Origin: an uncultured Oscillospiraceae bacterium
GTDB lineage: Bacteria; Bacillota; Clostridia; Oscillospirales; Oscillospiraceae
Length of the DNA stretch: 45,410 nucleotides
Assembly (NCBI GenBank): GCA_964634065.1
Contig: CAZWID010000001.1
Span: forward strand, 1 to 45,410
Direction: 5' to 3'
Under the pieces are notes generated by a model. That model was not told the origin of the DNA, searched no databases, and was given only the letters and a program-made list of their open reading frames with translations. This document shows positions 8,268 to 45,181 of the stretch, one piece after another. Each line of letters begins with the position of its first letter. Positions within the stretch are counted from its first letter, which is position 1. The position numbers and the translations under genes are program-made.

Positions 8268-8269
8268 GA

Positions 8270-9974: not shown

Positions 9975-9977
9975 TTT

Positions 9978-12300: not shown

Positions 12301-12303
12301 AGC

Positions 12304-14484: not shown

Positions 14485-14493
14485 TTTATGTCC

Positions 14494-15699: not shown

Positions 15700-15715
15700 T
15701 GCTCCGCTCCTTCGC

Positions 15716-16560: not shown

Positions 16561-16588
16561 AATTTCGTTTTGCTTTGAAAATGCAGCT

Positions 16589-16846: not shown

Positions 16847-18129
16847 TACTTGCCACCTCCGATTGTTCCTTCGACGAGTTTTCCTATCGTTATCGATGCA
16901 TCTATCGCCTTTTCCGTCGCCGCTATCTTTATGCTTCCTGCGGGTGCGGATTTCAGCACGTCTTCCGGCTCCGTCGGTTCAACGTAGGTGTAGCCCTCTC
17001 CTGCGGGGATACTCGACAGCTGCGCCGCCGCGTAACCGCACAGCTCCGTATCCGCTATGAGACTTGCACTCTGTGCCGTACCCTTTGCATAGGTCACCTT
17101 CACGCTTGTCACCGATACGATGCCCGTGCCGTTATTAACGATTACTATCTTGCCGTCACTTGCCGTCACCGCATAGTACATTTCGGTGCTGCTGTTTACG
17201 CCGATCGTCTTGCCGTTTACCGCTACCGATACCGCCTTGCCGTCCGCGCTCTTGAGTCCGATATGTACACCGACGACATTGCTCATATTGCTCAGCTTAA
17301 ACGCTATGCCCTGTCCCGTCGCAAGATATACTTCGTTCTTCGGTCCGTAGTTCTTGTAATCCTCCGCTACGCTCGAGGTCGTTATCTTATGGTCCACTAC
17401 CAGGTTGCCCTTAGAGTCTACCTTGTAGCTGCCGTCTGCGTTCTTCGCGGGACGTCCGTCGATATACACCGCTCCCGATACGCTGCCGTTTGCACTGTTG
17501 AAGCTGTTTGCCGAAATCAGTGCGTCTCTGACGTCGATGTACTGTGCGTTGTATTCGCCGTCCGCTGCGTAGATGTCGCCGTAGGTCTCGTTCAGCTTAT
17601 TGTTGTATACTCTGATACCGTCCAGTATGAAGCTTACGCTGCCGAGTCTTGTTCCGTCGGCTGCGGTGAGGTCAAGTGCCGTCGAGTATGCGACCTCGAT
17701 CTTCACGGTGTAGGTGCCGTAGGCAAGAGACGTTTCCTCGAATACGGGGATCTGCCAATAGCTGTCCGCCGATCTCGTCGATATCATCTGCTTCATGCCG
17801 ACCATTTTTCCCTGCGCGTCGTATACGCTGACCTTGAAGCCGCCCTGCGACGCAGTCGTTGCGGAGTAGAGCTCAAAGCCCGTTCCGGTGAAGGTGAACT
17901 GTGCGGTCGCGGTATTGCCGCCCTTGGCGACGGTGACGCTCATCGCCTTGCCGAGTGAGTAATTGGTGTACTCGCCGTAGGCTGCATCGTAGCCGTATAC
18001 GCCTTCGCCCGCCGTCTGCTTAATCGCCGCTATTGCCGCATCAGTCTTGCCGTCGTCGTACACCGCTTTCCAATCGCCGCTGTAGCTCACGAAGCTGTCC
18101 TCATAGTATACGCTCGTTGCGGGGATGAT
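16589..18129 (-). repeat. direct repeat copy A (1541 bp; 3' end of giant gene A plus small ORF A)
   Basis: Collinear with 22987..24527 at a constant offset of 6398 bp. Sub-blocks: 16589..16615 identical; 16616..16676 has 17 differences; 16677..17985 has no difference found; 17986..18129 has 5 silent SNPs (17986, 18010, 18022, 18043, 18088). Confidence 0.9.
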
Positions 18130-22029: not shown

Positions 22030-22632
22030 AAGTAAACTCCTCCCCATGTGTTTTGCGTTTGCCGATTTCGATTTTATCGTTTTTGTTCTGCGAAATGCGG
22101 CGGATTTTGCGGTTTTCTTCTGATAGGCATAAAGTTTAAAATCCACGTATTTCCACTCACAGAGCAAAAGATTCGGCATTTCTGCCGCAAGTGTAAATAC
22201 GATTCCAACCTATCATCTTATTTAACATTTATAATATATCAGTGTCACCATTAAATTACAAGTAAACAAATTGGCATTTTTTATCTACGTTTTGGCATTT
22301 TGACGATTTACATAATACTTTTTATGGCGGAATTATGGGGTGTTTTGTGCACTTTTTTCGACTTTTCTTCTTGCCTTTTATTTACAAAACAGGGGGGGTG
22401 GTCTGTTGGTGAACATTTTGAGTCGGTTTGTCGGTTTGATGTTCAATAATTGTGAAGAAATTTTTGTTAAAAATAACGAAAGTATTTTTTAGTTGATTTT
22501 CAGCTTGACGAAGCAGTGAGATGCTTTTTTGGGCTCACCGCAAAGGGTGCGCTGTCGGCGTCTTGTCGACAACCGATAGGACATTTAGTCCGCGCTCTGC
22601 CGTTCTGATTAACACTTTTGCAGATTCAAGTA

Positions 22633-22918: not shown

Positions 22919-22986
22919 TGCATACGAAAAACGGCACAGCGGAGTACGCCATGCCGATTTCGTTTGCTTTATGCTGTTTTCGTATT

Positions 22987-23244
22987 TTAGGAGTTAAAGA
23001 GCATTTCGTTTGTTGACGGAACCTGATAGCAATATAGTGATCCGTCCGCTCCCGGGTGGGTATTGCAACCGATTGCGGTGTCGAGGAACAGGAAGTCGCC
23101 GCCGCCGGCATCGACCTTGCAGGTCGTGTACGATACGGCATAGATCGTGTCCTGATACAGCTTGTTGCCGCAGTTTCCCGCTATCGAGCTGCTCAGCTCA
23201 TACTCCTCGAAATACAAGGCGGGCTTTTCATAGCTTCTTTTCAT
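22987..23244 (-). CDS. 85-aa four-Cys protein, copy B
   Basis: Same TAATG coupling and embedded SD as copy A. The protein is identical except H63 in place of S63. Confidence 0.85.
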   Translation of the reverse strand: MKRSYEKPALYFEEYELSSSIAGNCGNKLYQDTIYAVSYTTCKVDAGGGDFLFLDTAIGCNTHPGADGSLYCYQVPSTNEMLFNS

Positions 23245-24527
23245 TACTTGCCACCTCCGATTGTTCCTTCGACGAGTTTTCCTATCGTTATCGATGCATC
23301 TATCGCCTTTTCCGTCGCCGCTATCTTTATGCTTCCTGCGGGTGCGGATTTCAGCACGTCTTCCGGCTCCGTCGGTTCAACGTAGGTGTAGCCCTCTCCT
23401 GCGGGGATACTCGACAGCTGCGCCGCCGCGTAACCGCACAGCTCCGTATCCGCTATGAGACTTGCACTCTGTGCCGTACCCTTTGCATAGGTCACCTTCA
23501 CGCTTGTCACCGATACGATGCCCGTGCCGTTATTAACGATTACTATCTTGCCGTCACTTGCCGTCACCGCATAGTACATTTCGGTGCTGCTGTTTACGCC
23601 GATCGTCTTGCCGTTTACCGCTACCGATACCGCCTTGCCGTCCGCGCTCTTGAGTCCGATATGTACACCGACGACATTGCTCATATTGCTCAGCTTAAAC
23701 GCTATGCCCTGTCCCGTCGCAAGATATACTTCGTTCTTCGGTCCGTAGTTCTTGTAATCCTCCGCTACGCTCGAGGTCGTTATCTTATGGTCCACTACCA
23801 GGTTGCCCTTAGAGTCTACCTTGTAGCTGCCGTCTGCGTTCTTCGCGGGACGTCCGTCGATATACACCGCTCCCGATACGCTGCCGTTTGCACTGTTGAA
23901 GCTGTTTGCCGAAATCAGTGCGTCTCTGACGTCGATGTACTGTGCGTTGTATTCGCCGTCCGCTGCGTAGATGTCGCCGTAGGTCTCGTTCAGCTTATTG
24001 TTGTATACTCTGATACCGTCCAGTATGAAGCTTACGCTGCCGAGTCTTGTTCCGTCGGCTGCGGTGAGGTCAAGTGCCGTCGAGTATGCGACCTCGATCT
24101 TCACGGTGTAGGTGCCGTAGGCAAGAGACGTTTCCTCGAATACGGGGATCTGCCAATAGCTGTCCGCCGATCTCGTCGATATCATCTGCTTCATGCCGAC
24201 CATTTTTCCCTGCGCGTCGTATACGCTGACCTTGAAGCCGCCCTGCGACGCAGTCGTTGCGGAGTAGAGCTCAAAGCCCGTTCCGGTGAAGGTGAACTGT
24301 GCGGTCGCGGTATTGCCGCCCTTGGCGACGGTGACGCTCATCGCCTTGCCGAGTGAGTAATTGGTGTACTCGCCGTAGGCTGCGTCGTAGCCGTATACGC
24401 CTTCGCCTGCCGTCTGCTTTATCGCCGCTATTGCCGCATCGGTCTTGCCGTCGTCGTACACCGCTTTCCAATCGCCGCTGTAGCTTACGAAGCTGTCCTC
24501 ATAGTATACGCTCGTTGCGGGGATGAT
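22987..24527 (-). repeat. direct repeat copy B (1541 bp)
   Basis: Partner of 16589..18129; see that entry. Confidence 0.9.
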
Positions 24528-27500
24528 GTTGACCTCGGCATATTTATAGCCGCTGTCGACCTTTGCGGAGTAGTATACGCTGTCCTTATCTGCAAGCAGC
24601 TTGTTTGCCGTGTAGGTCAGTTCGTCATCGTTCAGTACCGCAGTACCGTACTTGGTGTCGGCGGATTTTGCGCCCTTAAACTCATCGCTGCCGCTGATTC
24701 CGGTATTGAGCGTCGTTTTGGGTGCGCTTGCGCTTATGCCGGATGCGTTGCCGACAAGCTCTATCGTTACGGGGAGACCGAAGTCAAGCACCGTATCGCT
24801 TCCGCTGACGCCCGCCTTGACGATTACCGTCACATAGCTCTCATAGGTCTTGCCGCCGAGAGTATAGCTGAGCTTCAAGGTGACGGAGGTATCCTTGCCG
24901 TTAAACGTAAGCTTTGCCGTTCTGCTCGTTGCGTCACCGAGAGTCGCTCCGTCGGCTTCGTCGCTGACGACAGTCCATGCATAGCTTCCGCTCGCCATAT
25001 CGAGGTCTGCCGCGCCGATGCCTACGGGCTGCGCCGTGAGGCTTAGGGTATCGTTCGGGTTAATGCCGTTTATGAGCTTATAGTCGGGGTACGCCCCGGT
25101 CTCGGTGTCGACGGTGTCGCTGCCTATCTGAATGTCGACAAATGCGGTGACGGAGGTTATCACAACGGAGTCGGAGCAGTAGGTAACGCCGTCTTTGACA
25201 TATGCCGCAGTGAGTGTCGCCGTGCCGCTCTGGGAGCCGAGGGACAACGTTGCATCACTGCCGTTGCCGGAAACGGTGAATACCGAGCTGTCGGAGCTCG
25301 TCCATACCCACGCGCCGCCTGCGGGAAGTGCCGCAAGAGGTACGCTGCTGTAGGTCACGGATACGTCCTTGGTAACGTTTGCAACGAAATTGTCGATGCT
25401 GTAAGCGTCGGGGTAGTAACCGTCGATGCAAATGTCCGCACTGTAGATAATATTGGTGACGGTCGCGGTATCGCTCATGGTGTAGGTCGTGCCGTCAAGC
25501 TCCGTCCAAGTCAGCGTCATGGTGATATTCGCTGTACCGCCCTGGCCGCCGAGGACAAGGTTTCCGTCGGAATCGACCTTTGCGACCGCTTCGTTATCGC
25601 TTGTCCAACTTACGCTGCGGTTCTGACCGAAAGTATAGCCGGTAAAGGAACCGTAGCTTGCAAATGCGTTATCGGTGAGAATGTTTTCGTTTCTGCCCGT
25701 GCTCGTCATCGTCGGTGAGTTGAGCATATTGTCGGAAACGTTATAGCTGAAACTCACCGCAGTGCCCGCGGTGCCGTTATAGAAGGTCTGCTCCTTGCTC
25801 TGATCGAGGATCTTGAGGAAGGTATCGGCACTTGCAGCCGCATAAAGTGTGACGAGGTTACCGGCATCGCTGCCGTCGTGTGCATGGTCTGCGTATCGGA
25901 TACCGCGGAAGCTGTATCCGCTTACGACGTCGTCCCAGTTATTCTTGTTCGGGACATCGTAGAAGAAGCTCAAATATCTGTCGGAGTTGCCGGGGAATAC
26001 CGAGCCGTAACGAATATAGCTCTTATAGGAAGTGTTACTGTCAAGCGGAGAAATGGTATTGAAGCTGTACCAATCACTGAAGCCGCCGGAAACGCCGTTC
26101 AGTCCGACGCTCTTTCTGACACCGGTGTCGTATACATCGGGTGTATAGAGTGCAGGGAAATAATAACCGAGGTACAGGTCACTGTATTTGTAGTTCTGCC
26201 ATTTGATCTCCGACTGCGTTGCGGTGGTCTGCTGCCAGAATGCAGCCTTATAGCTGTCGGCTTCGGGAACGACCGTAACGCCGTCGGACGCCGTGGTCGA
26301 TGCTATCGCAAAATACGGTGCGCCCTGCGTACCTCTTTGCAGAGTCGTTTGAAGCAGAACAAAGTCGGCTATCGGGTTTCCGTATACCGCACCTCTCCTC
26401 GAAGAACCTATGCCGCTGCCCTCCGGACTTGAGGTCTCACTGCCGTCGGTTGCCATGAGGACTATGTTACCCTGCTGATCGCTGCTTCCCGCGGGAAGGT
26501 TCTCGTCACTGCCGAAGAAGTAATAGCTTGCGCCGTCGGTTGCCGTTGTCGCAACGTAGAGGTTCTTGACCGTTGCCTGCAAATTTGCGGCATCGCCCGT
26601 CGGTACGCTCTTGAATATGCTTATGGGAACGCTGCTTGCGACAACGTTCTGACCTGCCACCGTATAGTGAATGTGATCCGTTGTATATGCGTCGGCAAGA
26701 ACATACTGGTTCTCGTATCCGCTGCGCTGAGTGCCAAGCTGATCGCTTACGGGAATGTATCCGAAGGAGTAGCCGTCAATGGGATCGACCGTCATGTAAT
26801 CGCCGTCGATATAGTCGGTCGCATTCTCCGCAAGCCATGCATTGACTTCGAGACGGACGCTCTCCATCTTCGCTATCGTCGCTTCGTCGGTGGTGACAGT
26901 GTCTCCGCGAGTGTAGCCTATCCACGGAGTAATATCGAAGAAGTATATCTCTATTCCCTTTGCATGGGCTGCCGAAATGAGCTGCTTATAGGCATTGATT
27001 ATCTCCTGTGCACTCGGAGTACCGTCAAAATACTGTGCGAGATTGGAGCAGTTGGGGTGCACGATATCGTTGACACCGATCTTGACGAAAACCTTTTTCA
27101 CACCGGAAAGGCTCAGTGCGTCCATATCGAAGCGGTCAAGAAGCGCATCGCCCTCGAGGGGACCGTCGCCTCCGACACCGTCGGCAAGAAGCTCATTGCC
27201 CTTTATGCCCGCACCGAGAACCGCAACGTTTGTCACGTTCTCGCCTCTGAGCTTCGACTGGAGCAGCGAAGGAATGTAGTTCGTGACGGTGGAGTCACCG
27301 ATGACCATGACGCTGTATGCGCTACTGTCGGTCGTCTTGACCTCAAGGCAGTTGAGCAGCGGAGTGATATTGTAATCTCCGGTATTGGCATCCTGCTTTG
27401 TAAGCTTGCCGAGTGCGCCGTATGTCCATTCCTCATTGTCCATCTGATCGCCGCGCCAACAGTAGGATATGCTCCCCGTGAGACCTGCGTCACGGACTTC

Positions 27501-28025
27501 GCCGGAGTTGGATATGTACGAAGAAAAGACAATATATCCGCCGGAGCTGACCGCGGTTTTCATGGTGAACCAGTCCGTCCAGACATAGCCGCCCTTGGGG
27601 ATGGTAAACGAAGTACTGCCGTTGACTTTAACGCTCACGGCGGTGTTGCCGTAAATAGCCGTGGCATTACCTTCACCGGGCAGTGCCGCAGTCATCTTCT
27701 TGACATTCAGATCCTCCGCTCCGTAGTAGTTAGTGAGCTTGACTCTGAAGGTTGTTCCGCCTGCGGAAATCTGAATCCTGCTGCGGAAGGTCGAGTTTGT
27801 CGAGAAAAGACCGCTGCCGGTAAAGTATTTATCGACAAGTGCCTCTTTCGTCTGTTCGCCGTTCAGGTTCGTCATGGCAGTGTACCACGACGTTATAACG
27901 CCGGAATTTTCATAGCTCTTTGCCTCTGCCGTGCCGCCTATCGCCGTGAACGGTATGACCGTCAGCAGCGAAAGGAGCATAAGAAGGCTGAGGAAAAGCG
28001 AAAATCCCCTCTTTAATTTGCTCAT
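23244..28025 (-). CDS. giant secreted multidomain protein B (1593 aa; N-terminal SGNH/GDSL esterase, Big_2-like domains, shared C-terminal module)
   Basis: Start moved to ATG 28025 (SD GGAGGT upstream), giving signal peptide MSKLKRGFSLFLSLLMLLSLLTVIPFTAIGGTAEA. SGNH blocks VIGDS, GVND and DHIH. Big_2-like VSWTSDNEAVAKVDSDGNLVLGGQGGTANI. The last about 470 aa are identical to protein A. Confidence 0.9.
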   Translation of the reverse strand: MSKLKRGFSLFLSLLMLLSLLTVIPFTAIGGTAEAKSYENSGVITSWYTAMTNLNGEQTKEALVDKYFTGSGLFSTNSTFRSRIQISAGGTTFRVKLTNYYGAEDLNVKKMTAALPGEGNATAIYGNTAVSVKVNGSTSFTIPKGGYVWTDWFTMKTAVSSGGYIVFSSYISNSGEVRDAGLTGSISYCWRGDQMDNEEWTYGALGKLTKQDANTGDYNITPLLNCLEVKTTDSSAYSVMVIGDSTVTNYIPSLLQSKLRGENVTNVAVLGAGIKGNELLADGVGGDGPLEGDALLDRFDMDALSLSGVKKVFVKIGVNDIVHPNCSNLAQYFDGTPSAQEIINAYKQLISAAHAKGIEIYFFDITPWIGYTRGDTVTTDEATIAKMESVRLEVNAWLAENATDYIDGDYMTVDPIDGYSFGYIPVSDQLGTQRSGYENQYVLADAYTTDHIHYTVAGQNVVASSVPISIFKSVPTGDAANLQATVKNLYVATTATDGASYYFFGSDENLPAGSSDQQGNIVLMATDGSETSSPEGSGIGSSRRGAVYGNPIADFVLLQTTLQRGTQGAPYFAIASTTASDGVTVVPEADSYKAAFWQQTTATQSEIKWQNYKYSDLYLGYYFPALYTPDVYDTGVRKSVGLNGVSGGFSDWYSFNTISPLDSNTSYKSYIRYGSVFPGNSDRYLSFFYDVPNKNNWDDVVSGYSFRGIRYADHAHDGSDAGNLVTLYAAASADTFLKILDQSKEQTFYNGTAGTAVSFSYNVSDNMLNSPTMTSTGRNENILTDNAFASYGSFTGYTFGQNRSVSWTSDNEAVAKVDSDGNLVLGGQGGTANITMTLTWTELDGTTYTMSDTATVTNIIYSADICIDGYYPDAYSIDNFVANVTKDVSVTYSSVPLAALPAGGAWVWTSSDSSVFTVSGNGSDATLSLGSQSGTATLTAAYVKDGVTYCSDSVVITSVTAFVDIQIGSDTVDTETGAYPDYKLINGINPNDTLSLTAQPVGIGAADLDMASGSYAWTVVSDEADGATLGDATSRTAKLTFNGKDTSVTLKLSYTLGGKTYESYVTVIVKAGVSGSDTVLDFGLPVTIELVGNASGISASAPKTTLNTGISGSDEFKGAKSADTKYGTAVLNDDELTYTANKLLADKDSVYYSAKVDSGYKYAEVNIIPATSVYYEDSFVSYSGDWKAVYDDGKTDAAIAAIKQTAGEGVYGYDAAYGEYTNYSLGKAMSVTVAKGGNTATAQFTFTGTGFELYSATTASQGGFKVSVYDAQGKMVGMKQMISTRSADSYWQIPVFEETSLAYGTYTVKIEVAYSTALDLTAADGTRLGSVSFILDGIRVYNNKLNETYGDIYAADGEYNAQYIDVRDALISANSFNSANGSVSGAVYIDGRPAKNADGSYKVDSKGNLVVDHKITTSSVAEDYKNYGPKNEVYLATGQGIAFKLSNMSNVVGVHIGLKSADGKAVSVAVNGKTIGVNSSTEMYYAVTASDGKIVIVNNGTGIVSVTSVKVTYAKGTAQSASLIADTELCGYAAAQLSSIPAGEGYTYVEPTEPEDVLKSAPAGSIKIAATEKAIDASITIGKLVEGTIGGGK
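26660..27310 (-). other. SGNH/GDSL hydrolase catalytic domain within protein B
   Basis: Block I GDS is encoded at 27292..27300. Block III is GVNDIVHP. Block V DHIH is encoded at 26667..26678. Confidence 0.75.
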
Positions 28026-28095
28026 AGACAGGTACCTCCGAATGTAGATTGCCAAATAAAAGTCAAGCCGAAGTTAGGCTACTTTTACGATTAAC

Positions 28096-28521: not shown

Positions 28522-29982
28522 TCACTTTTTCTTTCTTTGCAGCAGTTCTTTAATTACTCCGAGCAGGTAGTCGAAGCTTTCGAAGTGCAGCAGCTTTGAG
28601 CCTGCGACATAAATGCAAACACCCAAGGGCACCTGAATCAGCAGCGTCAGCCAATTTGCAAGCTTTAGGAGCTGCACACAATACACGATACCCGCCATTG
28701 TACACGACAGCAGCATCGACGGCAGCATATCGGATATCTGCTGCCTGTAAGTGTAATCAAGCAATTTGCGGTTCGGTGCGGCATTGACGGCAAAGCTGAG
28801 GAGTGCAAAGGCAAGCATACTCACTGCCATAACAAACGGACCGAACCACATTGTCGCAAAGAGTATCGCAAAGCCGATGAGCTTTTTAATTATCTCAAGC
28901 TTCAAGTACACGTCGCTTTTGCCGAGTGCCTTTATCGCATTGAGGTTTGCGGTTTGCAGCGGCAGCATCGCATAGTAAATGCTGAAAACCACAAGATAGG
29001 GCACACTCGGCAGCCATGCATCCGACAGCAGCACCGAAACGAGCGGCGTCGCACAGGCGGCAATGCCCATCATCATGGGCCACATTATATACGAGCTTAT
29101 GCGTATTGACCTGCGTGTCATCGCTTTGACGGTCGCAACATCATCCTGTGCCGATGACATCGCGGGAAAGAGTGCGGTGTCTATGGCTGTATTGATATTG
29201 CACACGACGGTATTCGGTATCATGTAGCCTCTGTTGTAAAATGCAAGGCTTTTTGCTGAATACAGCTTACCTATGACGAGTTGGCGCAGGTTGTTGTATA
29301 TTGTATTGATTATCGAGGAAACAAGCAGCTTCCAACCGAAGGTAAACAGTCCCTTGAATCGGCTGAAGGAGAAAGCGAAATCCGGTCTCCATTTCACGAC
29401 AAACCACAGTATCACCGTATTCACAAAATTCGCAAACAGATTCTGTGCTACCAATGCCCATGCACCGAAGCCGCTGTACGCCATCCATATTCCCAGTATT
29501 GCCGAACCCACCGTACCGCCGATAGATGCGTAAAAGGATTTGTTGAACAGGAGATTTTTCGCAACATACGCATCCTGTACGTTCTTGATACCGGATATGA
29601 CGAGTGAAAGACTCAGGACTCGGACAAGAGGAACAAGCTCCGGCTTAGCGTAGAAGTCGGCTATTATCGGCGCGGCGAAGAACATGATGAAGTATGTAAT
29701 GATGCCGACCGCTATATTGAAGTAGAACACCGTCGAAAAATCGAGGTTGTCCGCATTCTTTTTCTGTATAAGCGCGTTGCCCAAGCCGCTGTCGACAAAT
29801 ACGGTCATTATTTCCATAAAGACCGTGAGTATCGCAACGGTGCCGAACACGACGGGATCGAGCAAGCGTGCAAGGATTATAGAGACGACAAAGGTGACGA
29901 TCTGAGCTCCGAATCTCGCCATAAAGATCCATGTGAGTCCCGATACCACCTTAGTCCTGTTGTTTTGTGCTTTGTTGTCCAT
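28522..29982 (-). CDS. wzx: polysaccharide flippase (Wzx, MOP superfamily)
   Basis: 486 aa and strongly polytopic (about 12-14 TM helices). Wzx-like N-terminus GLTWIFMARFGAQIVTFVVSIILARLL. Confidence 0.8.
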   Translation of the reverse strand: MDNKAQNNRTKVVSGLTWIFMARFGAQIVTFVVSIILARLLDPVVFGTVAILTVFMEIMTVFVDSGLGNALIQKKNADNLDFSTVFYFNIAVGIITYFIMFFAAPIIADFYAKPELVPLVRVLSLSLVISGIKNVQDAYVAKNLLFNKSFYASIGGTVGSAILGIWMAYSGFGAWALVAQNLFANFVNTVILWFVVKWRPDFAFSFSRFKGLFTFGWKLLVSSIINTIYNNLRQLVIGKLYSAKSLAFYNRGYMIPNTVVCNINTAIDTALFPAMSSAQDDVATVKAMTRRSIRISSYIMWPMMMGIAACATPLVSVLLSDAWLPSVPYLVVFSIYYAMLPLQTANLNAIKALGKSDVYLKLEIIKKLIGFAILFATMWFGPFVMAVSMLAFALLSFAVNAAPNRKLLDYTYRQQISDMLPSMLLSCTMAGIVYCVQLLKLANWLTLLIQVPLGVCIYVAGSKLLHFESFDYLLGVIKELLQRKKK

Positions 29983-30030
29983 CAGTCACTCCGTGAGCTA
30001 TGGTATTTATCTCGACTCATATATTTGTCA

Positions 30031-30835
30031 TTAGTCTTTATGACTGATATGTTTACGCAATTCTCGGTACTTTATCATATCCAGTAAACGTATTATGCGA
30101 AAATGCGAATAGAGATAAAAGCCAAATTTTCCATACTCTTTATACGCTCTTCTCATTCGCAAGTTGCCGTCACGAAGGCGTTTATCCCAGTGAGTCGATT
30201 CATAGTGATGAATACTATATGTTTTGTCTGTAATACTCAGCTTACCTGTTTTATAATGCATGGGGCAAAAGTATTCCATTGGATATATATATATATATAT
30301 ATATATTGTCTGCATTTCCGTAGGTAATAGTTTGCAATTTGTCTTCATCAACAAATCCATGCTCTTTCAAAAAGTCTGTTTGATATTTCACACACGGTGT
30401 CGTATTTAAACTTCCGTCATTATTAACAAAGGAAAGTCCATCATAACATTCAAGCATATCTCGGATTACCGGCATTTCGGCTTCTGCTCCAAATCCAAGC
30501 CCTGTATTAACCCCTCCGGTGCAACCGATTCCCATAAAAACGTTGTTCCCAAGCAAATCATCAATACTTTTTATAAGTTCAACATCGGTATCAAGATATA
30601 TTCCGCCATATTCATGAATAATATCGAGACGAGCATAGTCAGAAACAAACGCCCATTTTTTATTCTCGTATGCCTGCCTCATATATTCGTTTTTGCTAAT
30701 ATCGTAATTCGTCTCATCCCAACGCTTTATCTCGTAATCAGGGCAAAACTTTTTCCAACTTTCAATGCACTTTTTGCCTAAGTCACTCATTTCATTTCCA
30801 CCAAACCAACAATAGTGTATAATCTTAGGTATCAT
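30031..30835 (-). pseudogene. GT32-family (DXD, sugar-binding region) glycosyltransferase split into two frames at an internal (AT)12 tract
   Basis: N-part 30251..30835: MIPKIIHYCWFGG, YLDTDVE; ATG 30835 lies 8 nt after AAGGAGG. C-part 30031..30282 is in the +1 frame: PMEYFCPMHYKTGKLSITDKTYSIHHYESTHW. The two ORFs overlap exactly at the repeat. Confidence 0.8.
30283..30306. repeat. (AT)12 dinucleotide microsatellite inside the GT32 coding sequence
   Basis: Direct count gives 12 AT units flanked by gg and tgtc. It reads (IY)n in both frames. Confidence 0.95.
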
Positions 30836-30864
30836 GAACATTGCCTCCTTTAATCTATGTGATT

Positions 30865-32049
30865 TCAGTCTCTGCAATACAGGTCTCTTGTATAGAGCTT
30901 GTCCTTAACATCGTCCAATTTGTCGTCCGCTCTGTTGGCAACTATGACATCGGCTCTGCGTTTGAAGTCCTCAATATCGGAAATGACCTCCGTGCCCTCA
31001 AACTCGGAAGCGTTTAATGTCGGCTCATAAATGACAAGGTCGACGCCATTTGATTTGAGTCGGGATATAACGCCACGTATACTCGACTCTCTGAAATTAT
31101 CCGAATTTGCTTTCATCGTCAGTCTGTAAATACCGACCGTGCCGCCATCGGCTTTACGCTCTATCATTCTTGCGATATGATCCTTGCGTTCGTCGTTTGC
31201 GGCGACGGATGCACTGATTATCTTATTCGGAATATTGCCGTAGTTGGCGACAAGCTGCTTTGTATCCTTCGGCAGGCAGTATCCGCCGTAGCCGAAGGAC
31301 GGATTGTTATAGTGCGTACCTATCCTCGGGTCGAGGCAAACACCGTCGATTATCTGCTTTGTGTCAAGACCGTTGAGCTCACAGTAGGTGTCAAGCTCAT
31401 TGAAGTAGCTCACTCTCACCGCAAGGTATGTATTGGCAAAAAGCTTTATCGCTTCCGCTTCGGTTGCATTGGTAAAAAGCGTCGGCACATTTTCGTCCTT
31501 TGCCCCGTCGGTAAGCAGCTTTGCAAAGAGCCTTGCATCCGCTTCGGTAGCGGCACCGCCCTTCGGCAAGCCGACCACGATGCGGCTCGGGTGCAGATTG
31601 TCATACAACGCCTTGCCTTCACGGAGAAACTCCGGTGAAAACAAAAGCCTTTTGCAGCCGAATTTCCCTATGACGCTTTCGCTGTAGCCTACCGGAACGG
31701 TCGATTTTATAACGACCAACGCATTCGGATTCACCTTTTCCGCCGTTTTGAGCACCGACTCCACGGTCCGGGTATTGAAAATGTTGAGCTTGGGGTCATA
31801 GTCCGTCGGTGTGGCGATTATTATGAGCTCCGCATTTTTATACGCACCTTCCGCATCGGTAGTTGCGGTCAGTGAAATGGGCATATTGAGATATTCGCTT
31901 ATTTCCTTGTCAACTATCGGAGATATGCCCCTGTTTATCTTTTCGGCTTTTGCGGGAGTTGTCGTTACCGCGACAACGTCATTATGCTGTGCCAGCAAAA
32001 CGGCTTGGGCAAGTCCCACATATCCCACACCTGCAACAGTTATTCTCAT
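30865..32049 (-). CDS. ugd: UDP-glucose 6-dehydrogenase
   Basis: 394 aa. NAD fold MRITVAGVGYVGLAQAVLLA and catalytic region GYGGYCLPKD. Confidence 0.88.
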   Translation of the reverse strand: MRITVAGVGYVGLAQAVLLAQHNDVVAVTTTPAKAEKINRGISPIVDKEISEYLNMPISLTATTDAEGAYKNAELIIIATPTDYDPKLNIFNTRTVESVLKTAEKVNPNALVVIKSTVPVGYSESVIGKFGCKRLLFSPEFLREGKALYDNLHPSRIVVGLPKGGAATEADARLFAKLLTDGAKDENVPTLFTNATEAEAIKLFANTYLAVRVSYFNELDTYCELNGLDTKQIIDGVCLDPRIGTHYNNPSFGYGGYCLPKDTKQLVANYGNIPNKIISASVAANDERKDHIARMIERKADGGTVGIYRLTMKANSDNFRESSIRGVISRLKSNGVDLVIYEPTLNASEFEGTEVISDIEDFKRRADVIVANRADDKLDDVKDKLYTRDLYCRD

Positions 32050-32061
32050 ATTCTTACCTTC

Positions 32062-33309
32062 TCAGATAACCGTCGGATAGTCGTTTTTCTTACCTTCGGC
32101 ATAATCGAGGATCATTTTCGCCTCCATGCCGAAGCGTTTTTCGACGGTCATGAATTTGTCAATCGCCGTTTTATGGGCATTTGAACGTATTTTGTCGATT
32201 GTTTCCGCATCGTTTTGTAAGGCGATGAGCATTTCGGCAGCTTCCGCTTCCGTGTCGTAAACAAGGCAATTGACACCTTTATCGATAAATACGTCAACGG
32301 AATGATTGTTATTCGTCAAAACAAGGCTTCCCTCGCCCATTATCTCGTAGAAAATATTGACTCGGTTCCACTCCCCCGTCAGCAGACTCGCAAATGAGTT
32401 CCTCGCATACCTTCTGCAATCACCTTGAGATTTTCCGCCTACGAAGTGGACATATTCGCTCACTCCGTATTCCTCTGCGACCCTTAGCGTCTCATTGTAC
32501 ATGGTCTCGTCGTCAACGGTGCCGATAAGGTACAGATGCATCTTGCAACCTCGCTTATGCAGCTCTCCCAGTATCCTCGCACTGCGATCCTGCCGCTTCA
32601 CCTCGGCTATCCTGCCTATGTGCGACAGTGCCATCGGGTCAAATGCATCCGGATAGTTTGCTGAGTCTCCGGTATCCACAGGCGGCTGAGTATCGGGTAT
32701 CATTACCGCAGAACGCCAAAAGTAGAAATCGAATTTCTTCTTTTTAATGCCGAGGATGTCATACAGCTCATCGGCACGGCTACCGTCATTCGTCGCAAGA
32801 ATAAAGCTCTTTTTGCCGAGCATCGAGAGCGTTATATAGGTGTAGTCCTTCAGTGCCTTCCACCATCGTCTTATGCCCTTGGGCACGGTTTCGAGTACGT
32901 TTGCCATCTCCTGCGTACCGAACTGACGCAAGCCGCAGGGTATGCCGAGCTTTTCGGCGGCACGGACACCCATATGACTGCCCTCCGACATACCGTAAAC
33001 GAAATCGTAATGCCGCTTTTTCAGCAGCTTTTTCGTCTCTCTGTACATCAAAAAAGGCAGTTTAAGCTTAGACAAAAGCCCGTTTTTCTTAATCTTTATA
33101 TGTATCAGATTTTCCTTTTTGAAATGTTCGCTTTCTATAACGGTCTTATCCTGCGGCGAAAACAGAAGTATGTCCACCGTGTGTCCCTGTTCGATGAGTA
33201 TCTTGAACGGAAAATAAAATGCAGGCAAGCCCGATAGAGTTTCATCGTTCATCCCGCCGAGTATCGTCTCAACGGCAGGATTGTCAAACGCTATGTATAG
33301 TATTTTCAT
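32062..33309 (-). CDS. glycosyltransferase (GT-B fold, GT4-like; weak assignment)
   Basis: 415 aa. MKILYIAFDN N-terminus and a two-domain layout typical of group-1 glycosyltransferases, but the canonical EX7E region is not obvious by eye. Confidence 0.6.
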   Translation of the reverse strand: MKILYIAFDNPAVETILGGMNDETLSGLPAFYFPFKILIEQGHTVDILLFSPQDKTVIESEHFKKENLIHIKIKKNGLLSKLKLPFLMYRETKKLLKKRHYDFVYGMSEGSHMGVRAAEKLGIPCGLRQFGTQEMANVLETVPKGIRRWWKALKDYTYITLSMLGKKSFILATNDGSRADELYDILGIKKKKFDFYFWRSAVMIPDTQPPVDTGDSANYPDAFDPMALSHIGRIAEVKRQDRSARILGELHKRGCKMHLYLIGTVDDETMYNETLRVAEEYGVSEYVHFVGGKSQGDCRRYARNSFASLLTGEWNRVNIFYEIMGEGSLVLTNNNHSVDVFIDKGVNCLVYDTEAEAAEMLIALQNDAETIDKIRSNAHKTAIDKFMTVEKRFGMEAKMILDYAEGKKNDYPTVI

Positions 33310-33319
33310 GGTTAGCGTT

Positions 33320-34792
33320 TCACCTTTTGTTTAACCTATAATAAGTATAGTAGTCATCTTGAACTACTATCGTATAGTTTTCGAGAAGATTCAGCATTTC
33401 TCTATCATCCTCCCCGACATTTGTCACTATCCAAAGAGGCTCATCGTTTTTAACGTATTCGAGAAACTCTCCATACACGTTTCTTTGCTCGGTAGTCCAC
33501 CATTTTTGAAGCGTATAATATTTGTAGCATGGTGTGATATCGGCATTTACATAGAAATCCGCCAAAACTCCAAAGCCTATTACGGAGTTTCTTTCATCTT
33601 GCGGTATTATCTGCATACTTTCGTGCGTCTGATTATACTGTTGGTTTGAGATTCCCGATATGTATGTCTTGTATATAGGTGCTCCAACGCTGTATGCACT
33701 GAACAACGCAAAAATCGTTACTATCAAAGTTGCACTTATCGCAGCGATTTTTTTGCTCTTTACAAAGCTCAGAATATTCTTAACATCCGCATCGGGTAAT
33801 GCCACTGCGATTGCTATCGCAAAAAGAGGCGCACCCAAGGTAAAATAGTGCACGTAAACATTTGTGTACACCAACATGGCATAAGTCACTGCAGTTGCCG
33901 AAAGCAGTGAAAAGTACAATCTGCTCTTAGTTCGTTTCCCGGCTATTGCAAACACTGCTGTTGCAAAAACACCCGGTGCATACATTACAATATAAAACGG
34001 TAGCTCCGCAGAAAAAATTGCAGAATGAGTGCTTTCCTTTGCATAAATCAAATTGTACAAAAACGTCGCATAGAGCATATCGTAAAGGGCGTTATTGGCA
34101 TAGTAATACCAACATATCGGCAATGCAGCAACGGCAATACCCAATAGTCCGGCAAGCAGATTTGCTATAATATTTTTCCATTTCTTCGCTGCAATCAGTG
34201 CAATGCCTGTGCAGACAATAAGCACACACATCGTTATTGCGTTATTCAGCCTTAGAAACGCAAGGATGCCTATGATAATTCCGTAGGCAAAGGCAAGTAT
34301 TGGGGGATGCTCCGCTTTATTCGATTTAAGAAATAAGACTTCGCAATAAACCGCTATCAATATAAACGGCATACTGAGTTCTTCGGTTAGGTTGCCGTGC
34401 GAAAAGCAATAGAAAAAAACAGTTGCAAATCCGAGCAATGGCAAAAGTGGCTTTGCTTCAAAGCTTTTCACTATCTTTTCAAGCACAAGTATATCTATCC
34501 CAAAAAATATGCTCTGAAGAATACACACGCCTGTTCTACCACCCATGGCATATCCCAAAGCTTCAAGCCAAAACAGGACGGGTCCTTTGTGGTCAAACAG
34601 ATCCACGTAGCACATTTTTCCCTCAAGTATTCCTTTACCCGTCAGTATAAAAATTGACGAATCCAAGCAGTTGTAATGCGGGTACAGCGGACTCGTGCAG
34701 CCTGAAAAGACAAGCATTAGAGCAAATGCCGATAGCATCACTAAGAATATGTGCTTAACACTTTGCAATCTATTGCCGTTTAAACAGCTCAT
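33320..34792 (-). CDS. large polytopic membrane protein, GT-C (ArnT/PMT-like) glycosyltransferase or polymerase candidate
   Basis: Start moved to ATG 34792 (SD GGGAGAA 7 nt upstream), giving 490 aa. About 11-12 TM helices plus a soluble C-terminal domain of about 100 aa. Visibly lower GC than its neighbours. Confidence 0.6.
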   Translation of the reverse strand: MSCLNGNRLQSVKHIFLVMLSAFALMLVFSGCTSPLYPHYNCLDSSIFILTGKGILEGKMCYVDLFDHKGPVLFWLEALGYAMGGRTGVCILQSIFFGIDILVLEKIVKSFEAKPLLPLLGFATVFFYCFSHGNLTEELSMPFILIAVYCEVLFLKSNKAEHPPILAFAYGIIIGILAFLRLNNAITMCVLIVCTGIALIAAKKWKNIIANLLAGLLGIAVAALPICWYYYANNALYDMLYATFLYNLIYAKESTHSAIFSAELPFYIVMYAPGVFATAVFAIAGKRTKSRLYFSLLSATAVTYAMLVYTNVYVHYFTLGAPLFAIAIAVALPDADVKNILSFVKSKKIAAISATLIVTIFALFSAYSVGAPIYKTYISGISNQQYNQTHESMQIIPQDERNSVIGFGVLADFYVNADITPCYKYYTLQKWWTTEQRNVYGEFLEYVKNDEPLWIVTNVGEDDREMLNLLENYTIVVQDDYYTYYRLNKR

Positions 34793-35951
34793 CACTATTT
34801 CTCCCTTTTCGTTCATAGCAGTTGTAAATCGCAATTCCGAGAATAAGCGGAATATATATGTAATAGTCCAATCCTTCAAAAAAAGTTCTCGCAGTTGCGA
34901 AAACGCATAGTGCAAACGGCAGGCTCCCTCTTACTTTGGCAAGTGATGTTATAAAAATAAGTGCTACAAGAAATGTTCCTATAAGCCCGGTTGATACAAG
35001 ATATGCTGCATATACCAAATGTGCTCCAATCGTATCGCTGTGAAGCTCCTCGTACATAAAGCCGTTGCCGAATATTTTTCCGAAAGCATCACTACCAAGG
35101 AACATATTCCAAGCGTTTCTAATTCCTTCTTCACGTCCCGATGTTGAATCTCCGTCAATAAGGCGATTAAAATCGCTGTTTTTTATGGCAATATAGCCGA
35201 GTACTGCAGCAATTATAAGAACAACAACACCTATCAAGGCTTTCCACGGATTTTTAAGGTACAGATTATAAATATTCAACGCAAATATCGTTATAAGTGC
35301 AGCTATCGTACAAAGAAATGCACCTCTACACTGGCTGTAAATAAGTGCATAAGCTAAAAACAGGGTCATAACCCCATATATAACCTTATGTTTTCCACCC
35401 TTTATGATATATACAATTCCCAACACCGTACTCAAGCCGAAAACATAAGCGTTTTTATTTCTGTTTACGTGAATACCGTTGAAGATCAATTTGCCGTTTT
35501 GAGCCAAAGTAGGATCATCATACGCATTATATCGGAAGAATATGATTGCACAAAGCACTGCCGCAAAGAAGCAGCTCATCACAATAAAGTGAACTTCCCT
35601 TTCATTCCACTTAGTTCCCGTCGCAGTCCAAAACATAAGTAAATACAGTATCGCCGCACCGCCAATCATAAACTCGTCACTATTCCATGAATTGAGCAGC
35701 AGGACAATCACAAAATAGATTGCGGTTGTTAATGCTATATTTCGCATAGCAGAGCTTATCGTCCCGTAATTTAGCATACGAATCAAAAGCACCGCAATCA
35801 TGATAGGTCTGAAAACCTGTGTAACGATTTCCGGTACTCTGTTGTAAAATATTTGCGAAACGATGGTAAAAAACACCGCAGAAACAACCAAACACGATAT
35901 AGACAGTTTTTCGCTTTCATTGTATTCACTTGTCATACGCAAGTCATGCAT
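34770..35951 (-). CDS. O-antigen ligase/polymerase family membrane protein (Wzy-like)
   Basis: 393 aa with about 10 TM helices and a large periplasmic-type loop late in the protein, as in the Wzy_C family. Low GC. Confidence 0.65.
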   Translation of the reverse strand: MHDLRMTSEYNESEKLSISCLVVSAVFFTIVSQIFYNRVPEIVTQVFRPIMIAVLLIRMLNYGTISSAMRNIALTTAIYFVIVLLLNSWNSDEFMIGGAAILYLLMFWTATGTKWNEREVHFIVMSCFFAAVLCAIIFFRYNAYDDPTLAQNGKLIFNGIHVNRNKNAYVFGLSTVLGIVYIIKGGKHKVIYGVMTLFLAYALIYSQCRGAFLCTIAALITIFALNIYNLYLKNPWKALIGVVVLIIAAVLGYIAIKNSDFNRLIDGDSTSGREEGIRNAWNMFLGSDAFGKIFGNGFMYEELHSDTIGAHLVYAAYLVSTGLIGTFLVALIFITSLAKVRGSLPFALCVFATARTFFEGLDYYIYIPLILGIAIYNCYERKGRNSDELFKRQ

Positions 35952-37032
35952 ATATCTTCTCCAGTGTTTTTGCGACTGAGTTTACGTCAAATCTTTCTTT
36001 TACCTTTTCGGCGGAGCTTATGTCTCTTTCCGGTGCGGAAAGGACTGTTTTTGCCCATGTCTCATCACTTTCCGACAGCGGCAAATAGGTCGTTCTGCCG
36101 TCTGCATTCGTATCCTTCGGTACAACATCCGAGGCGACGCAGACAAGTCCCGATGCCTGTGCCTCAATCATTGCCATTCCGAAGCCTTCGTATCTCGACG
36201 GGAACAGGAAAACATCCATCGCCATATACGCATTTTCAACGTCGCTCATTGCTCCCGTAAACACCGTTTTATCCGAGATACCGAGGCTCTCGGCAAGAGA
36301 ACGGACATTGTCCTCAAGCTCACCGTCTCCCGTAAGCAGGAGTGCCGAGTTCGGTCTCTCCTTGCAAAGCTCGGCAAAGGTGCCGAGGATCTTTTCATGA
36401 TTTTTCGCCGGATTAAAGTGCCCGACGTGACCGACAACGAATTTATCCTCAAGACCGTACTTCTTTCGCATTTTCTCCCGCACTGCGGCATCAAACGCAA
36501 AGCGGTCGCAATCAATCCCGTCCGGCAGAACCGATGCCCTTGCGTCGCTCATTATGCTTTCACCGAAAACATAGCGGCACGCCTTTTCGGAGCAGCCCAA
36601 AAGCACCGTGGCATTGCGGCGTATCATGTGCCGCATCGACGCTTCATAGGCAAGGCGAGGCAACGACCGCTTTTCTCCGGTATGTGCATTGTGTGCATGG
36701 GCAACTCTGAGCTCGACTCCGCACTTTTTTGCGGTTTTCAGCATGAGTCCCGAATAGAAAAACACATGACTGTGCACTCCGTAGATATCGCTCTCAGTTT
36801 TCAGAATATGTTCAAGATTGTTCGTGAGGCTCATACTCGGATCAAAATAAAACAGTCTCGCACCCAAGCTTTTTGCCTCATCGTCCATGAGCGAAGGCTT
36901 GCCGGAGGTGAGTGCAAAATCAAATTGATATCGGTCTCTGTCAATACGGCGGTATATGTTCATCACGAAATTCGCAACGCCGCCGGAGTCGAGAGACGCC
37001 AATATGTGAAGTATTCTTTTCGGCTTATCCAT
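35944..37032 (-). CDS. glycosyltransferase family 4
   Basis: Start moved to ATG 37032 (SD AAAGGAGAAG), giving 362 aa. N-terminus ILHILASLDSGGVANFV and GT4 motif PSRYEGFGMAMIEAQASGLVCVASD. Confidence 0.85.
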   Translation of the reverse strand: MDKPKRILHILASLDSGGVANFVMNIYRRIDRDRYQFDFALTSGKPSLMDDEAKSLGARLFYFDPSMSLTNNLEHILKTESDIYGVHSHVFFYSGLMLKTAKKCGVELRVAHAHNAHTGEKRSLPRLAYEASMRHMIRRNATVLLGCSEKACRYVFGESIMSDARASVLPDGIDCDRFAFDAAVREKMRKKYGLEDKFVVGHVGHFNPAKNHEKILGTFAELCKERPNSALLLTGDGELEDNVRSLAESLGISDKTVFTGAMSDVENAYMAMDVFLFPSRYEGFGMAMIEAQASGLVCVASDVVPKDTNADGRTTYLPLSESDETWAKTVLSAPERDISSAEKVKERFDVNSVAKTLEKIYA

Positions 37033-38218
37033 ACTTCTCCTTTGCCGCTTCCGCAAATTCCGAGTAGAATTTGCGGCGTTTTTTTGCCAAAAGCTCTCGG
37101 TCGAAGTCGCCCGCACGTTTGAAATTCTCACGTGCGGCTGCGCTCATTTGTTCCTTCGTTACACTCCCGAGAAGCCGTGCGATCTCCGTCGTATTCTTTT
37201 TTCCGAACACGGCGGTGTCATTCAAAAGCTCGGGCATACCGCCCGTTTTAGACGCAAAGCACGGAAGTCCCCTGCTCATCGCCTCAATCAAGGCTCTCGG
37301 CATACCTTCCGTAAGACTCGGCTGTATGTAAACGTCGAGGTCATCGAGCCAGTCGAACATTTTATCATGCGGAATACTGCCCTCGAACACGACCTGATCC
37401 GCAACGCCGAGACGCTCTGCCAGCTCTTTCAGTGCCGTATTGTCGCCGCCTCCGGCAAGGCGGTACTCGAAATCCGTCCTGCCCTCGGCTTTGAGCCTTG
37501 CCAACGCCTCTATCACGAAGCGTTGACCTTTGAACGCAACGTTCACCGCCGCGGCGGTGCCGATGCGGAGCTTGCCCTCGTGCGTCTCGATTTTTTCAAG
37601 CCGTTTTTCGAGAACCTCCTGTGACACCGGTTGAAGCTGCACGTCGGATATTGCCGCCTGCTTACCGTCCGTCGGATAGCGTCGCTGAAGAAATTCTTCC
37701 GTAACGTACACGGCATAGTCCGCGTGCTTCATGCTGCGTCTCATACTGTGCCATGCAAACGGTGCCATCACCTTGCCGTATATACTGTGATTCCACAGGC
37801 TGTCCCACGGGCAGCCGACCGCCTCCGCAAGCACCGGTTTGCCAAGCTTATTGCAGTATTTTATCGCTATCGTGCCGCTTCCCGAACCGAGTCTTGCTAT
37901 TACCGCTCTGTCCGGTGTTATATTATCCGTAACGGTTTTTTTCAGCTCTATGCGTTTTTTCAGACTCAAAAAGCTGCGTATGCTTGCCTTTGTATCGGGC
38001 AGGAAAATCACGGTAATCCGAGGGTCCGTTATCTTATTCATGCGACCGAGTGCCTCGGTATCGTCCGGAGATATGGGAGAATGACGCATGATTAGGGTGA
38101 TGCCGTCAAACAGCTCAAGGTATCTGTCAAACACACTTTGGGAGAAAGCGGAGCCGACGTAGTAGTTTCCGTCCCTATCCTGTGCGACCTTGTCTTCATA
38201 TACAAACAGCAGCTCCAT
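37025..38218 (-). CDS. glycosyltransferase family 4
   Basis: 397 aa. C-terminal motif PSLTEGMPRALIEAMSRGLPCFAS. Confidence 0.8.
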   Translation of the reverse strand: MELLFVYEDKVAQDRDGNYYVGSAFSQSVFDRYLELFDGITLIMRHSPISPDDTEALGRMNKITDPRITVIFLPDTKASIRSFLSLKKRIELKKTVTDNITPDRAVIARLGSGSGTIAIKYCNKLGKPVLAEAVGCPWDSLWNHSIYGKVMAPFAWHSMRRSMKHADYAVYVTEEFLQRRYPTDGKQAAISDVQLQPVSQEVLEKRLEKIETHEGKLRIGTAAAVNVAFKGQRFVIEALARLKAEGRTDFEYRLAGGGDNTALKELAERLGVADQVVFEGSIPHDKMFDWLDDLDVYIQPSLTEGMPRALIEAMSRGLPCFASKTGGMPELLNDTAVFGKKNTTEIARLLGSVTKEQMSAAARENFKRAGDFDRELLAKKRRKFYSEFAEAAKEKYG

Positions 38219-38226
38219 GGCTCACC

Positions 38227-39315
38227 TCATTTTCCGAAATATATAGCTTCAAGTCTGTCTATCACATTGTCGATTGCAAATTTTTGCAGTCCGTTCAGGT
38301 TCTCCGCGCTGCGGTCAAGCTCACTATTCATCGCACTTGCGATGAGCTTTGTCAGCTTAGCGACATCGTTCGGTGCGAAAAGGCACTCCTTTGTTACAAG
38401 ATCTCTCGAGCCTCGGATATCCGAGCAAATGACCTTCTGTGATGCGGCTATTGCCTCCATCACAGATACGGGCAAGCCCTCCCTGTAGGACGGGTGCACG
38501 AAAAGGTCGAAGGTCTTATAAAGCTCCGCAACGTCGCTTCTGTAGCCCAAAAGCAGCAGCTTGACATTAAGCTCCTTTGCCCTTTCTTCCAGTGCGTTTT
38601 CAAGCTCTCCCTTGCCCGCTATTGCATAGCAGACATTGCCTCGGTCAAGCTTCGCTATGGCTTCGATGACCGCCCTGTGATTCTTATTCTCGTTCAGCTC
38701 ACCGACGGAGAGTATCGCAAAGCTGTCCTTCGGTACGCCTATCTCCGCTCTTTTGACGGCTTTGTCGACGCAAACGGAGGCAAACCTGTCTATATCTATC
38801 CCGACTCCGGGTACATACTCCACCCTTTTTGCCGGCATTTTCTTTTGTGCCAGTGCGTAATCCTCACTGTTTATCGTTATCAGCACATCGGTAAACCGTG
38901 CGCAAAAGCGTTCTATCGGGTAAAAGATAAGCCAATTCTTTTTCGGCGCACCCTTAAAAAAGTGGAAGCCGTGTGCCGTGTATATCACGCGAAGTCCTTT
39001 TTTTCTCGCCTTGCGGCAGGCAAGTCTCGCGCACATTGCGGCAACCGGAGTATGGCAGTGCACTATATCATAGCCGCCGCTTTCGACTATGCGTTTTAAA
39101 TGCTTTATCGCTTTGAAGTTGCCGACATTCAAAGGAGAGCGTGAGAAATCCACCTGTATAACCCGACAGCCGAGCTCATGGAAGCACTCCGGCACCGCCC
39201 ATTCCCTGTCGTTGCAGGCAATGTCAACCTCATGTCCTTCGGCTTTGAGCTTATTTATAAAATCCTTGAAGAATCCCATGGTCGCACCGACCGTCGTCAC
39301 GTATAGAATCTTCAT
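38227..39315 (-). CDS. glycosyltransferase family 4
   Basis: 362 aa. MKILYVTTVGATMGFF N-terminus and motif PSYREGLPVSVMEAIAASQKVICSD. Confidence 0.85.
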   Translation of the reverse strand: MKILYVTTVGATMGFFKDFINKLKAEGHEVDIACNDREWAVPECFHELGCRVIQVDFSRSPLNVGNFKAIKHLKRIVESGGYDIVHCHTPVAAMCARLACRKARKKGLRVIYTAHGFHFFKGAPKKNWLIFYPIERFCARFTDVLITINSEDYALAQKKMPAKRVEYVPGVGIDIDRFASVCVDKAVKRAEIGVPKDSFAILSVGELNENKNHRAVIEAIAKLDRGNVCYAIAGKGELENALEERAKELNVKLLLLGYRSDVAELYKTFDLFVHPSYREGLPVSVMEAIAASQKVICSDIRGSRDLVTKECLFAPNDVAKLTKLIASAMNSELDRSAENLNGLQKFAIDNVIDRLEAIYFGK

Positions 39316-39701
39316 TTTATCTCCACCAACTCTATAAGTCCGACTCTCGCATTATACATAAACGCAACCGTGGCACCGCCTATCGCGGGTGCCGGCTCCG
39401 GCTCCTTTACCGTCACAAAGCCCTTTGTCTTCAGCTCATCCGTTGCGGCGTTTATGTCCTGCACCTCATAGCAGATATGGTACGGCGTCGGTCCCGTGCT
39501 TTTGAGTATCCCGTCTACCGGTGTATCATCACCGTCGGGTGCGACAAGCTCCACACGCTCCGCACCGTTTTCGAGAAACATTATTCTTATGCGCCGACTC
39601 TCGTCCTTTGTTATCTCGCCCATTGTATATCCGAGCGTGGCAAAGACCTCGGCTGCCTTTTCCAAACGCTTTACCGCGTATCCGATATGATGTACCTTCA
39701 C
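39312..39701 (-). CDS. VOC/glyoxalase-fold protein (methylmalonyl-CoA epimerase-like)
   Basis: 129 aa. MKVHHIGYAVKRLEKA, VELVAP, HICYEV and the GLIELVE tail fit the H/E/H/E metal-ligand layout of the VOC family. Confidence 0.75.
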   Translation of the reverse strand: MKVHHIGYAVKRLEKAAEVFATLGYTMGEITKDESRRIRIMFLENGAERVELVAPDGDDTPVDGILKSTGPTPYHICYEVQDINAATDELKTKGFVTVKEPEPAPAIGGATVAFMYNARVGLIELVEIK

Positions 39702-45073: not shown

Positions 45074-45181
45074 TTTTGCTCCTTTCAGTAGCAATATTTT
45101 TCTTAAAAAAGAATATCACTTTTAACAACACATTTCAAGCTCTGTTGCTATCATTATACTGTATCCGTTGCCAAAGTTAAA

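Follow-up and report, generated by a model that had tools for sequence, protein, structure and literature searches.

A GT32 glycosyltransferase gene of an uncultured Clostridia-type bacterium carries an uninterrupted (AT)12 dinucleotide tract, at a length that leaves the two conserved parts of the gene in different reading frames. We lean towards the view that the tract is genuine and hypermutable, was sequenced in its OFF position and would control one sugar-addition step as a slipped-strand ON/OFF switch. Such a switch is credible; that it flips frequently and reversibly, that the true repeat count is 12 and that the organism benefits from it are points that we infer. Counted in its favor are a tract length beyond chance, the intactness of both halves of the gene and an ON protein that is modeled with high confidence.

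In the mechanism that we propose, replication slippage would have lengthened the ATA-TAT (Ile-Tyr) codons of a conserved beta-strand, I-x-I-Y-P. With 12 units the gene would be out of frame and its truncated product would correspond to the OFF state. Dinucleotide tracts of 12 units are by nature liable to slipped-strand mispairing, and the gain of one unit or the loss of two would rejoin the frames into an ON enzyme in which the repeat would merely extend one arm of a surface beta-hairpin. The result would be a stochastic and reversible ON/OFF control of one sugar-addition step in the polysaccharide.

A GT32 gene split at a dinucleotide tract

The tract lies on the minus strand at positions 30283-30306 of the window, by which we mean the whole 45.4-kb stretch of DNA that was analyzed. 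It is placed within the GT32 coding sequence and is bordered by AAGTATTCCATTGG and TGTCTGCATTTCCGTAGG. The preliminary description had reported a perfect 24-bp AT repeat longer than chance would allow, and the sequence bears out its coordinates and its 100% perfection. It is the sole simple repeat of at least 5 units in the window. The remaining dinucleotide runs reach 4 units at most, homopolymers of 8 or more are absent from the 45.4 kb, and the 30 alternating AT runs found elsewhere are all 6-8 nt long, with nothing between them and the 24-nt tract. Even for a 16-nt AT pattern, the count expected from 100 dinucleotide-preserving shuffles of the window is 0.00. Phasome surveys have used dinucleotide cut-offs of at least 6 or at least 8 units for phase-variable loci (PMC5953494), and 12 units exceed both, as they exceed the background maximum of 4. 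Tract length alone is nonetheless no proof of switching, since the Neisseria dinucleotide tracts examined in the same study showed no variation (PMC5953494).

The preliminary description needs correction with respect to base composition. It spoke of a GC-rich genome, but the window has 49% GC. It also called the gene AT-rich relative to its neighbors: at 36% GC the gene is indeed AT-rich compared with the window, but other variable genes of the locus, at 33-36 kb, are similar, with 39-41%.

As sequenced, the 5' reading frame of the gene (30251-30835, minus strand) opens with an ATG at 30835, and an AGGAGG ribosome-binding site, read from the sequence, is found 8 nt 5' of this codon (30844-30849, minus strand). 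The frame begins with MIPKIIHYCWFGG and reads MIPKIIHYCWFGG...TYGNADN-IYIYIYI-SNGILLPHAL, passing through the tract to its stop as ...TYGNADNIYIYIYISNGILLPHAL*. After the tract it holds 10 out-of-frame codons before the stop at 30251-30253, and the product is 194 aa long. The 3' part (30031-30282, minus strand) lies in a frame displaced by one base and comprises 83 codons and a stop (30031-30033). This C-terminal frame reads (IY)4-PMEYFCPMHYKTG...IHHYESTHW... and, taken past the tract to an alternative extent, (IY)4-PMEYFCPMHYKTGKLSITDKTYSIHHYESTHW.... Whatever the frame, (AT)12 encodes (IY)n, and no stop codon can arise from the tract alone.

We rebuilt the gene in silico with 6-17 AT units. 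A full-length protein was obtained only with 7, 10, 13 and 16 units (264, 266, 268 and 270 aa, respectively), and every other unit number tested gave a truncation of 190-202 aa. The frame is thus restored by one additional unit, to 13, or by the removal of two, to 10. The preliminary description had proposed that the gene is split exactly at the repeat, that the sequenced state is the truncated one and that such changes would fuse the frames into an enzyme of about 268 aa. This picture holds in all its parts: the N- and C-terminal frames meet at the tract, the sequenced frame ends early, and the 268 aa are those of the 13-unit product.

The frameshift falls exactly in the tract, in the only broken gene of the window, and both of its halves are intact. 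This is also what would be seen if the repeat had been miscounted and its true length were in frame, most simply 13 units, in which case the gene would be intact and would encode a protein with an (IY)n insertion in the hairpin. Dinucleotide AT tracts are in general sequencing experience prone to stutter and miscalls, and polymerase stutter or a basecalling error could have altered the assembly consensus by a unit. We nevertheless consider a miscount rather improbable. A 24-nt tract with unique flanks is well within read and k-mer lengths, the consensus usually gives the modal length, and there is no indel noise elsewhere in the contig. Long ORFs of the contig (1777, 1603 and 1006 aa) run without a break, and GT32 is the only gene in 45 kb that looks frameshifted. 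Such a single broken gene is compatible with an OFF allele that is real and equally with an error confined to the tract. Should the sample have held a mixed population, the assembler would have reported the majority length, which would again be a case of phase variation.

A quite different proposal is that the 12-unit allele yields some full-length enzyme without any change in the DNA, through a -2 shift of the ribosome or slippage of the RNA polymerase. Passing from the N- to the C-terminal frame takes a +1 shift, to which -2 is equivalent, and a 2-nt shift in (AU)n regenerates ATA/UAU codons, such that both tRNAs would re-pair perfectly. A ribosome slipping by -2 on (AU)n might in this way rescue the OFF allele in part. 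We find recoding extremely improbable as an account of the locus: downstream of the tract there is no stimulatory RNA structure (fold z-score of 0.14), ATA is the most used Ile codon and no hungry-codon pause is therefore expected, and the two-frame arrangement is found in none of the orthologs, all of which have a single frame. To our knowledge, recoding at a dinucleotide tract has no precedent in bacteria.

Two further candidates were set aside. A role of (AT)12 as a promoter or terminator was dropped since promoter-like matches at the tract are at background (4 versus 4.1 expected) and no terminator was found there. A chimeric assembly at a low-complexity join was excluded because both flanks are successive stretches of one GT32 gene, in the correct order and orientation.

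Conservation and predicted structure of the protein

The fused protein matches PF04488 (GT32, Gly_transf_sug) with 61.9 bits for a cut-off of 23 (E = 9.8e-17), as well as PF05704 (Caps_synth) with 45 bits for a cut-off of 24.5. Its DXD motif is D82-T-D84, and both aspartates are invariant in 84 aligned sequences. The family match and the invariant motif support the assignment to GT32 made in the preliminary description. The C-terminal part contains a histidine (H210 in the numbering of the fused protein) that is invariant in the same 84 sequences, together with several residues conserved in at least 90% of them.

Conservation was assessed against the eight closest full-length homologs, which are 65-77% identical overall. 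The N-terminal 171 residues, in frame, share 69-81% identity with these proteins, and the C-terminal 66 residues, out of frame, share 70-82% with the same eight. Alignment with the homologs revealed no further stop or frameshift in either half. Judged from these alignments, the out-of-frame 3' part appears free of decay and as conserved as the 5' part; the accumulated mutations that the preliminary description had named as the mark of a fixed pseudogene are not seen in the downstream frame. As both halves are equally conserved, the frameshift should be either recent or reversible. The 194-aa product keeps the DXD motif and is most likely inactive, because the conserved C-terminal third, including the invariant H210, is missing from it.

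AlphaFold modeled the 13-unit protein with a pLDDT of 95 and a pTM of 0.89. Foldseek matched the model to YeGT, PaToxG, SetA and the fungal GT32 enzyme Och1 (E = 4e-7 to 2e-6), and the protein is predicted to have a GT-A fold like that of the toxin-type transferases and Och1. In the model, the repeat forms a strand (residues 179-185) that pairs with strand 168-173 in a beta-hairpin. A repeat-free homolog (P0001), which shares YFCPMHYKTG with the repeat-centered region of the window protein, has the same hairpin with strands of 3 and 4 residues (168-170 and 173-176). Among 84 relatives, the segment from a conserved Gln (Q168) to a conserved Pro (P186) is mostly 10 residues long (75 sequences); six relatives have 11-12 residues, and P0061 and P0062 have 14. 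Family members thus span 10-14 residues, and changes in length at the hairpin are therefore tolerated; at 19 residues, the 13-unit form would be longer than any of the 84 relatives. The two relatives with 14 residues have a long first arm without a repeat (...QTIYYEGSSITVYP). We had considered that the non-repeat arm of the window protein was co-extended to match the repeat, and withdrew this idea since these repeat-free proteins have a similarly long arm.

Each in-frame step adds an Ile-Tyr pair to the hairpin arm, directly before the EYFCP and HH motifs. The ON alleles (10, 13 and 16 units) might in principle form a slippage-made series of hairpin lengths with altered acceptor or linkage preference, a tunable 'ruler', but we regard this as very unlikely.

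The polysaccharide locus and the tract site in relatives

The GT32 gene belongs to a co-oriented Wzx/Wzy surface-polysaccharide cluster on the minus strand, in line with the surface-glycan context that had been suggested for it. It lies between ugd, encoding a UDP-glucose/GDP-mannose dehydrogenase (30865-32049), which is its upstream neighbor in the same orientation, and the gene of a Wzx-type flippase (Polysacc_synt_3, 28522-29982) downstream. The wzx start is 48 nt past the ON-frame stop of GT32 and 268 nt past the OFF-frame stop. The rest of the glycosyltransferase and polymerase block (32062-39315) comprises a GT1-like gene, an unassigned ORF, Wzy and three GT4 genes, and the cluster is syntenic with a Logan contig (L002) whose gene order is that of the window except for an extra GT2 between GT32 and wzx. 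This GT2 is present at 8809-9747 of L002 and at 1064-2002 of a second contig (L003) and is missing at 29983-30030 of the window. Should GT32 build the polysaccharide backbone and not a side branch, its OFF state could prove detrimental instead of being a useful variant.

Three ORFs of the locus (39312-41344 and 33320-34915) have no family match above threshold. One, of 548 aa, has only weak acid-phosphatase/HAD-like and GDSL matches, and a 129-aa ORF overlaps its end; another, of 531 aa, stands where L002 carries a DUF6625 gene.

At the site of the tract, the relatives read ...LQxVx-G-I-(S/T)-I-Y-P-x-E-Y-F-C-P..., and the closest one (L001) has the codons ATA AGC ATA TAT CCG. In several more distant relatives IYIYP is found there, namely in 2 of 120 word-index matches and in 8 of the 150 best matches from an exhaustive scan of 1.84 billion representatives. 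Among about 270 relatives inspected, none has (IY)3 or longer at the site and none is frameshifted there. We then scanned the DNA of JGI metagenome contigs, regardless of frame, for at least 6 AT units abutting P-x-[ED]-Y-F-C-P codons. Six loci were recovered, each of them a GT32 gene that is in frame and has 6-7 units. One gene is represented by four independent contigs, distinguishable by nearby SNPs, and the count is exactly 6 in every one of them; these short (AT)6-7 versions are apparently stable. In relatives the site has only 3-7 AT units, and neither 8 or more units nor an out-of-frame arrangement was seen in the other GT32 genes examined. A scan of genome contigs found an AT tract in the GT32 gene at 0 of 35 loci, the best relative there having 63% identity.

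Given that short in-frame tracts occur elsewhere and that none reaches 8 units, the tract of the window represents an Ile-Tyr codon seed that has expanded specifically in this lineage. The seed itself is ancestral, since homologs have ATA TAT CCG or IYIYP at the same codons. The site can be described as a recurrent proto-microsatellite because the alternating Ile/Tyr beta-strand is encoded by ATA-TAT. Codon usage favors such seeds. ATA makes up 56-57% of the Ile codons, at 35-40 per 1000, in the genes at 946-16465 and 28522-39315, housekeeping genes included; this majority is unusual for an organism of roughly 50% GC and favors ATATAT seeds at Ile-Tyr dipeptides. A separate (AT)7 tract is found at 3297-3310 of L002, within the final codons of the GT4 gene that precedes wzy and ends in '...CDIYIYEGL*'. 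Here too AT units have expanded at an Ile-Tyr codon pair, the second such case in loci of this type, and the window ortholog of this gene ends in '...EKIYA*' with ATATAT only (about 35945-35960).

The window allele occurs a single time in a collection of 15 billion proteins, as a fragment (P0006) that forms a one-member cluster. Exact look-ups of the truncated GT32 product, ugd and wzx in the protein collection and in the index of encoding contigs returned no record. Among JGI metagenome contigs, 0 matched both exact flanks at a spacing of 6-36 nt. In 5.8 billion clustered proteins, the best relatives of TopA (12304-14484) are 92% and 91% identical, followed by many at 88-89% that apparently come from one common related species. 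With a best TopA match of only 92%, the species of the window is essentially unsampled.

These observations also bear on the main competitor of the switch, namely that the tract is an accidental dead end: runaway slippage at the IY codons would have knocked out the gene recently, leaving a young pseudogene with no selected switching. We think this unlikely, while giving it appreciable weight. Core contingency loci are usually conserved features of a lineage. The long tract is not such a feature, as the allele is unique to a single contig and the other GT32 genes stop at 6-7 units, in frame. The window has no other long simple repeat and thus gives no hint of a switch-rich organism. In L002 and L003, GT32 is followed by a GT2 gene that the window has lost, a hint of ongoing remodeling of the locus. 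A lone expansion fits a one-off event as well as an evolved contingency locus. A review defines phase variation by reversible switching at one locus, clearly faster than background, and warns that mutation-prone tracts can be accidental (PMC11868660). Such switching would in practice be visible as differing repeat numbers. Against a dead end, the 83 out-of-frame codons are undecayed, with the same identity to homologs as the in-frame part. The tract is perfect, one step separates it from an in-frame length, and the model of the in-frame protein is good. Reversion would moreover continue at such a length, whether selected or not.

Known switches and other features of the window

In gut commensals, capsule variation is usually put down to invertible promoters, and for gut-type Clostridia commensals DNA inversion is regarded as the main source of phase variation. 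If (AT)12 is indeed a switch, then an uncultured Clostridia-type bacterium varies its surface polysaccharide by microsatellite slippage, which has so far been documented mainly in host-adapted pathogens and in pneumococcal 15B/15C. We would in addition be looking at a contingency locus at birth, in which an Ile-Tyr strand in an ATA-preferring organism seeds a repeat that the fold absorbs. The mechanism itself is familiar; new are the group to which the host belongs and the fact that the repeat can be seen arising from a structural Ile-Tyr strand. Were the tract only accidental or miscounted, the finding would be ordinary. Where such tracts occur, neither gene calls nor glycan predictions based on metagenome-assembled genomes are reliable at the GT32 gene.

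The closest analogue is the (TA)n tract of wciZ in Streptococcus pneumoniae, where length changes frameshift an O-acetyltransferase and give rise to serotypes 15B and 15C and to mixed populations (PMC5028725). The 15B/15C switching is described as reversible in a report that cites van Selm 2003 for it (PMC5266551). Both cases involve a TA/AT tract inside the ORF of a polysaccharide-tailoring enzyme, in a Wzx/Wzy-type locus of a Gram-positive bacterium. They differ in that WciZ is an O-acetyltransferase, whereas the gene of the window encodes a glycosyltransferase and has 12 units. Length polymorphism is documented for wciZ only, and the host of the window is an uncultured, Clostridia-type non-pathogen. 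The window protein has no homology to WciZ: only GT32-type families match it, and no acyltransferase family does. Because the enzyme family differs, the locus would work like the wciZ switch without being a member of the wciZ family.

Intragenic slippage that toggles a glycan glycosyltransferase is likewise the mode of action of Haemophilus lic2A and lgtC, Neisseria lgt and the LOS/LPS genes of Campylobacter and Helicobacter (PMC11868660). Dinucleotide examples given in this literature include the CT/GA tracts of H. pylori (PMC4205683, PMC10564699). The simple-repeat genes of these mucosal pathogens mostly have homopolymers or tetranucleotides near their 5' end, are conserved among strains and exist as many loci per genome. 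In contrast, the (AT)n tract of the window is located at about 70% of the gene, in a structural beta-strand, and occurs once, with no other long simple repeat. A Type III mod gene of Mycoplasma mycoides, as reported, has 12 AG repeats and is prematurely terminated in the sequenced state (PMC3498834). It resembles the GT32 gene in its 12-unit intragenic dinucleotide tract and its early termination as sequenced, and differs in that it is a DNA methyltransferase gene with another repeat motif in another organism. With regard to its own family, the Och1-type and bacterial capsular polysaccharide synthesis enzymes of the GT-A class, the window protein is alike in its HMM match, DXD motif and predicted fold. 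It differs from the roughly 270 relatives inspected, which have at most (IY)2 at the site and are not frameshifted.

The remainder of the window is a Firmicutes-type chromosomal core, with SMC, FtsY, RNase III, PlsX, TrmFO, TopA and DprA. An AT-rich stretch (43066-45094, 39% GC) that borders the polysaccharide locus on its upstream side encodes a HaeII-type restriction endonuclease (PF09554, E = 1e-145) whose gene overlaps that of a C5 cytosine methyltransferase.

The minus strand also contains two giant genes for surface proteins. Big_2, Listeria-Bacteroides repeat and DUF7601 domains are encoded by the first (16846-22179, 1777 aa), and the second (23244-28055, 1603 aa) is GDSL-lipase-like. 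Their 3' ends and downstream flanks are spanned by a direct repeat of 1548 bp (16588-18135 and 22986-24533) whose copies are 98.45% identical, which suggests a recent duplication or gene conversion of a common C-terminal module.
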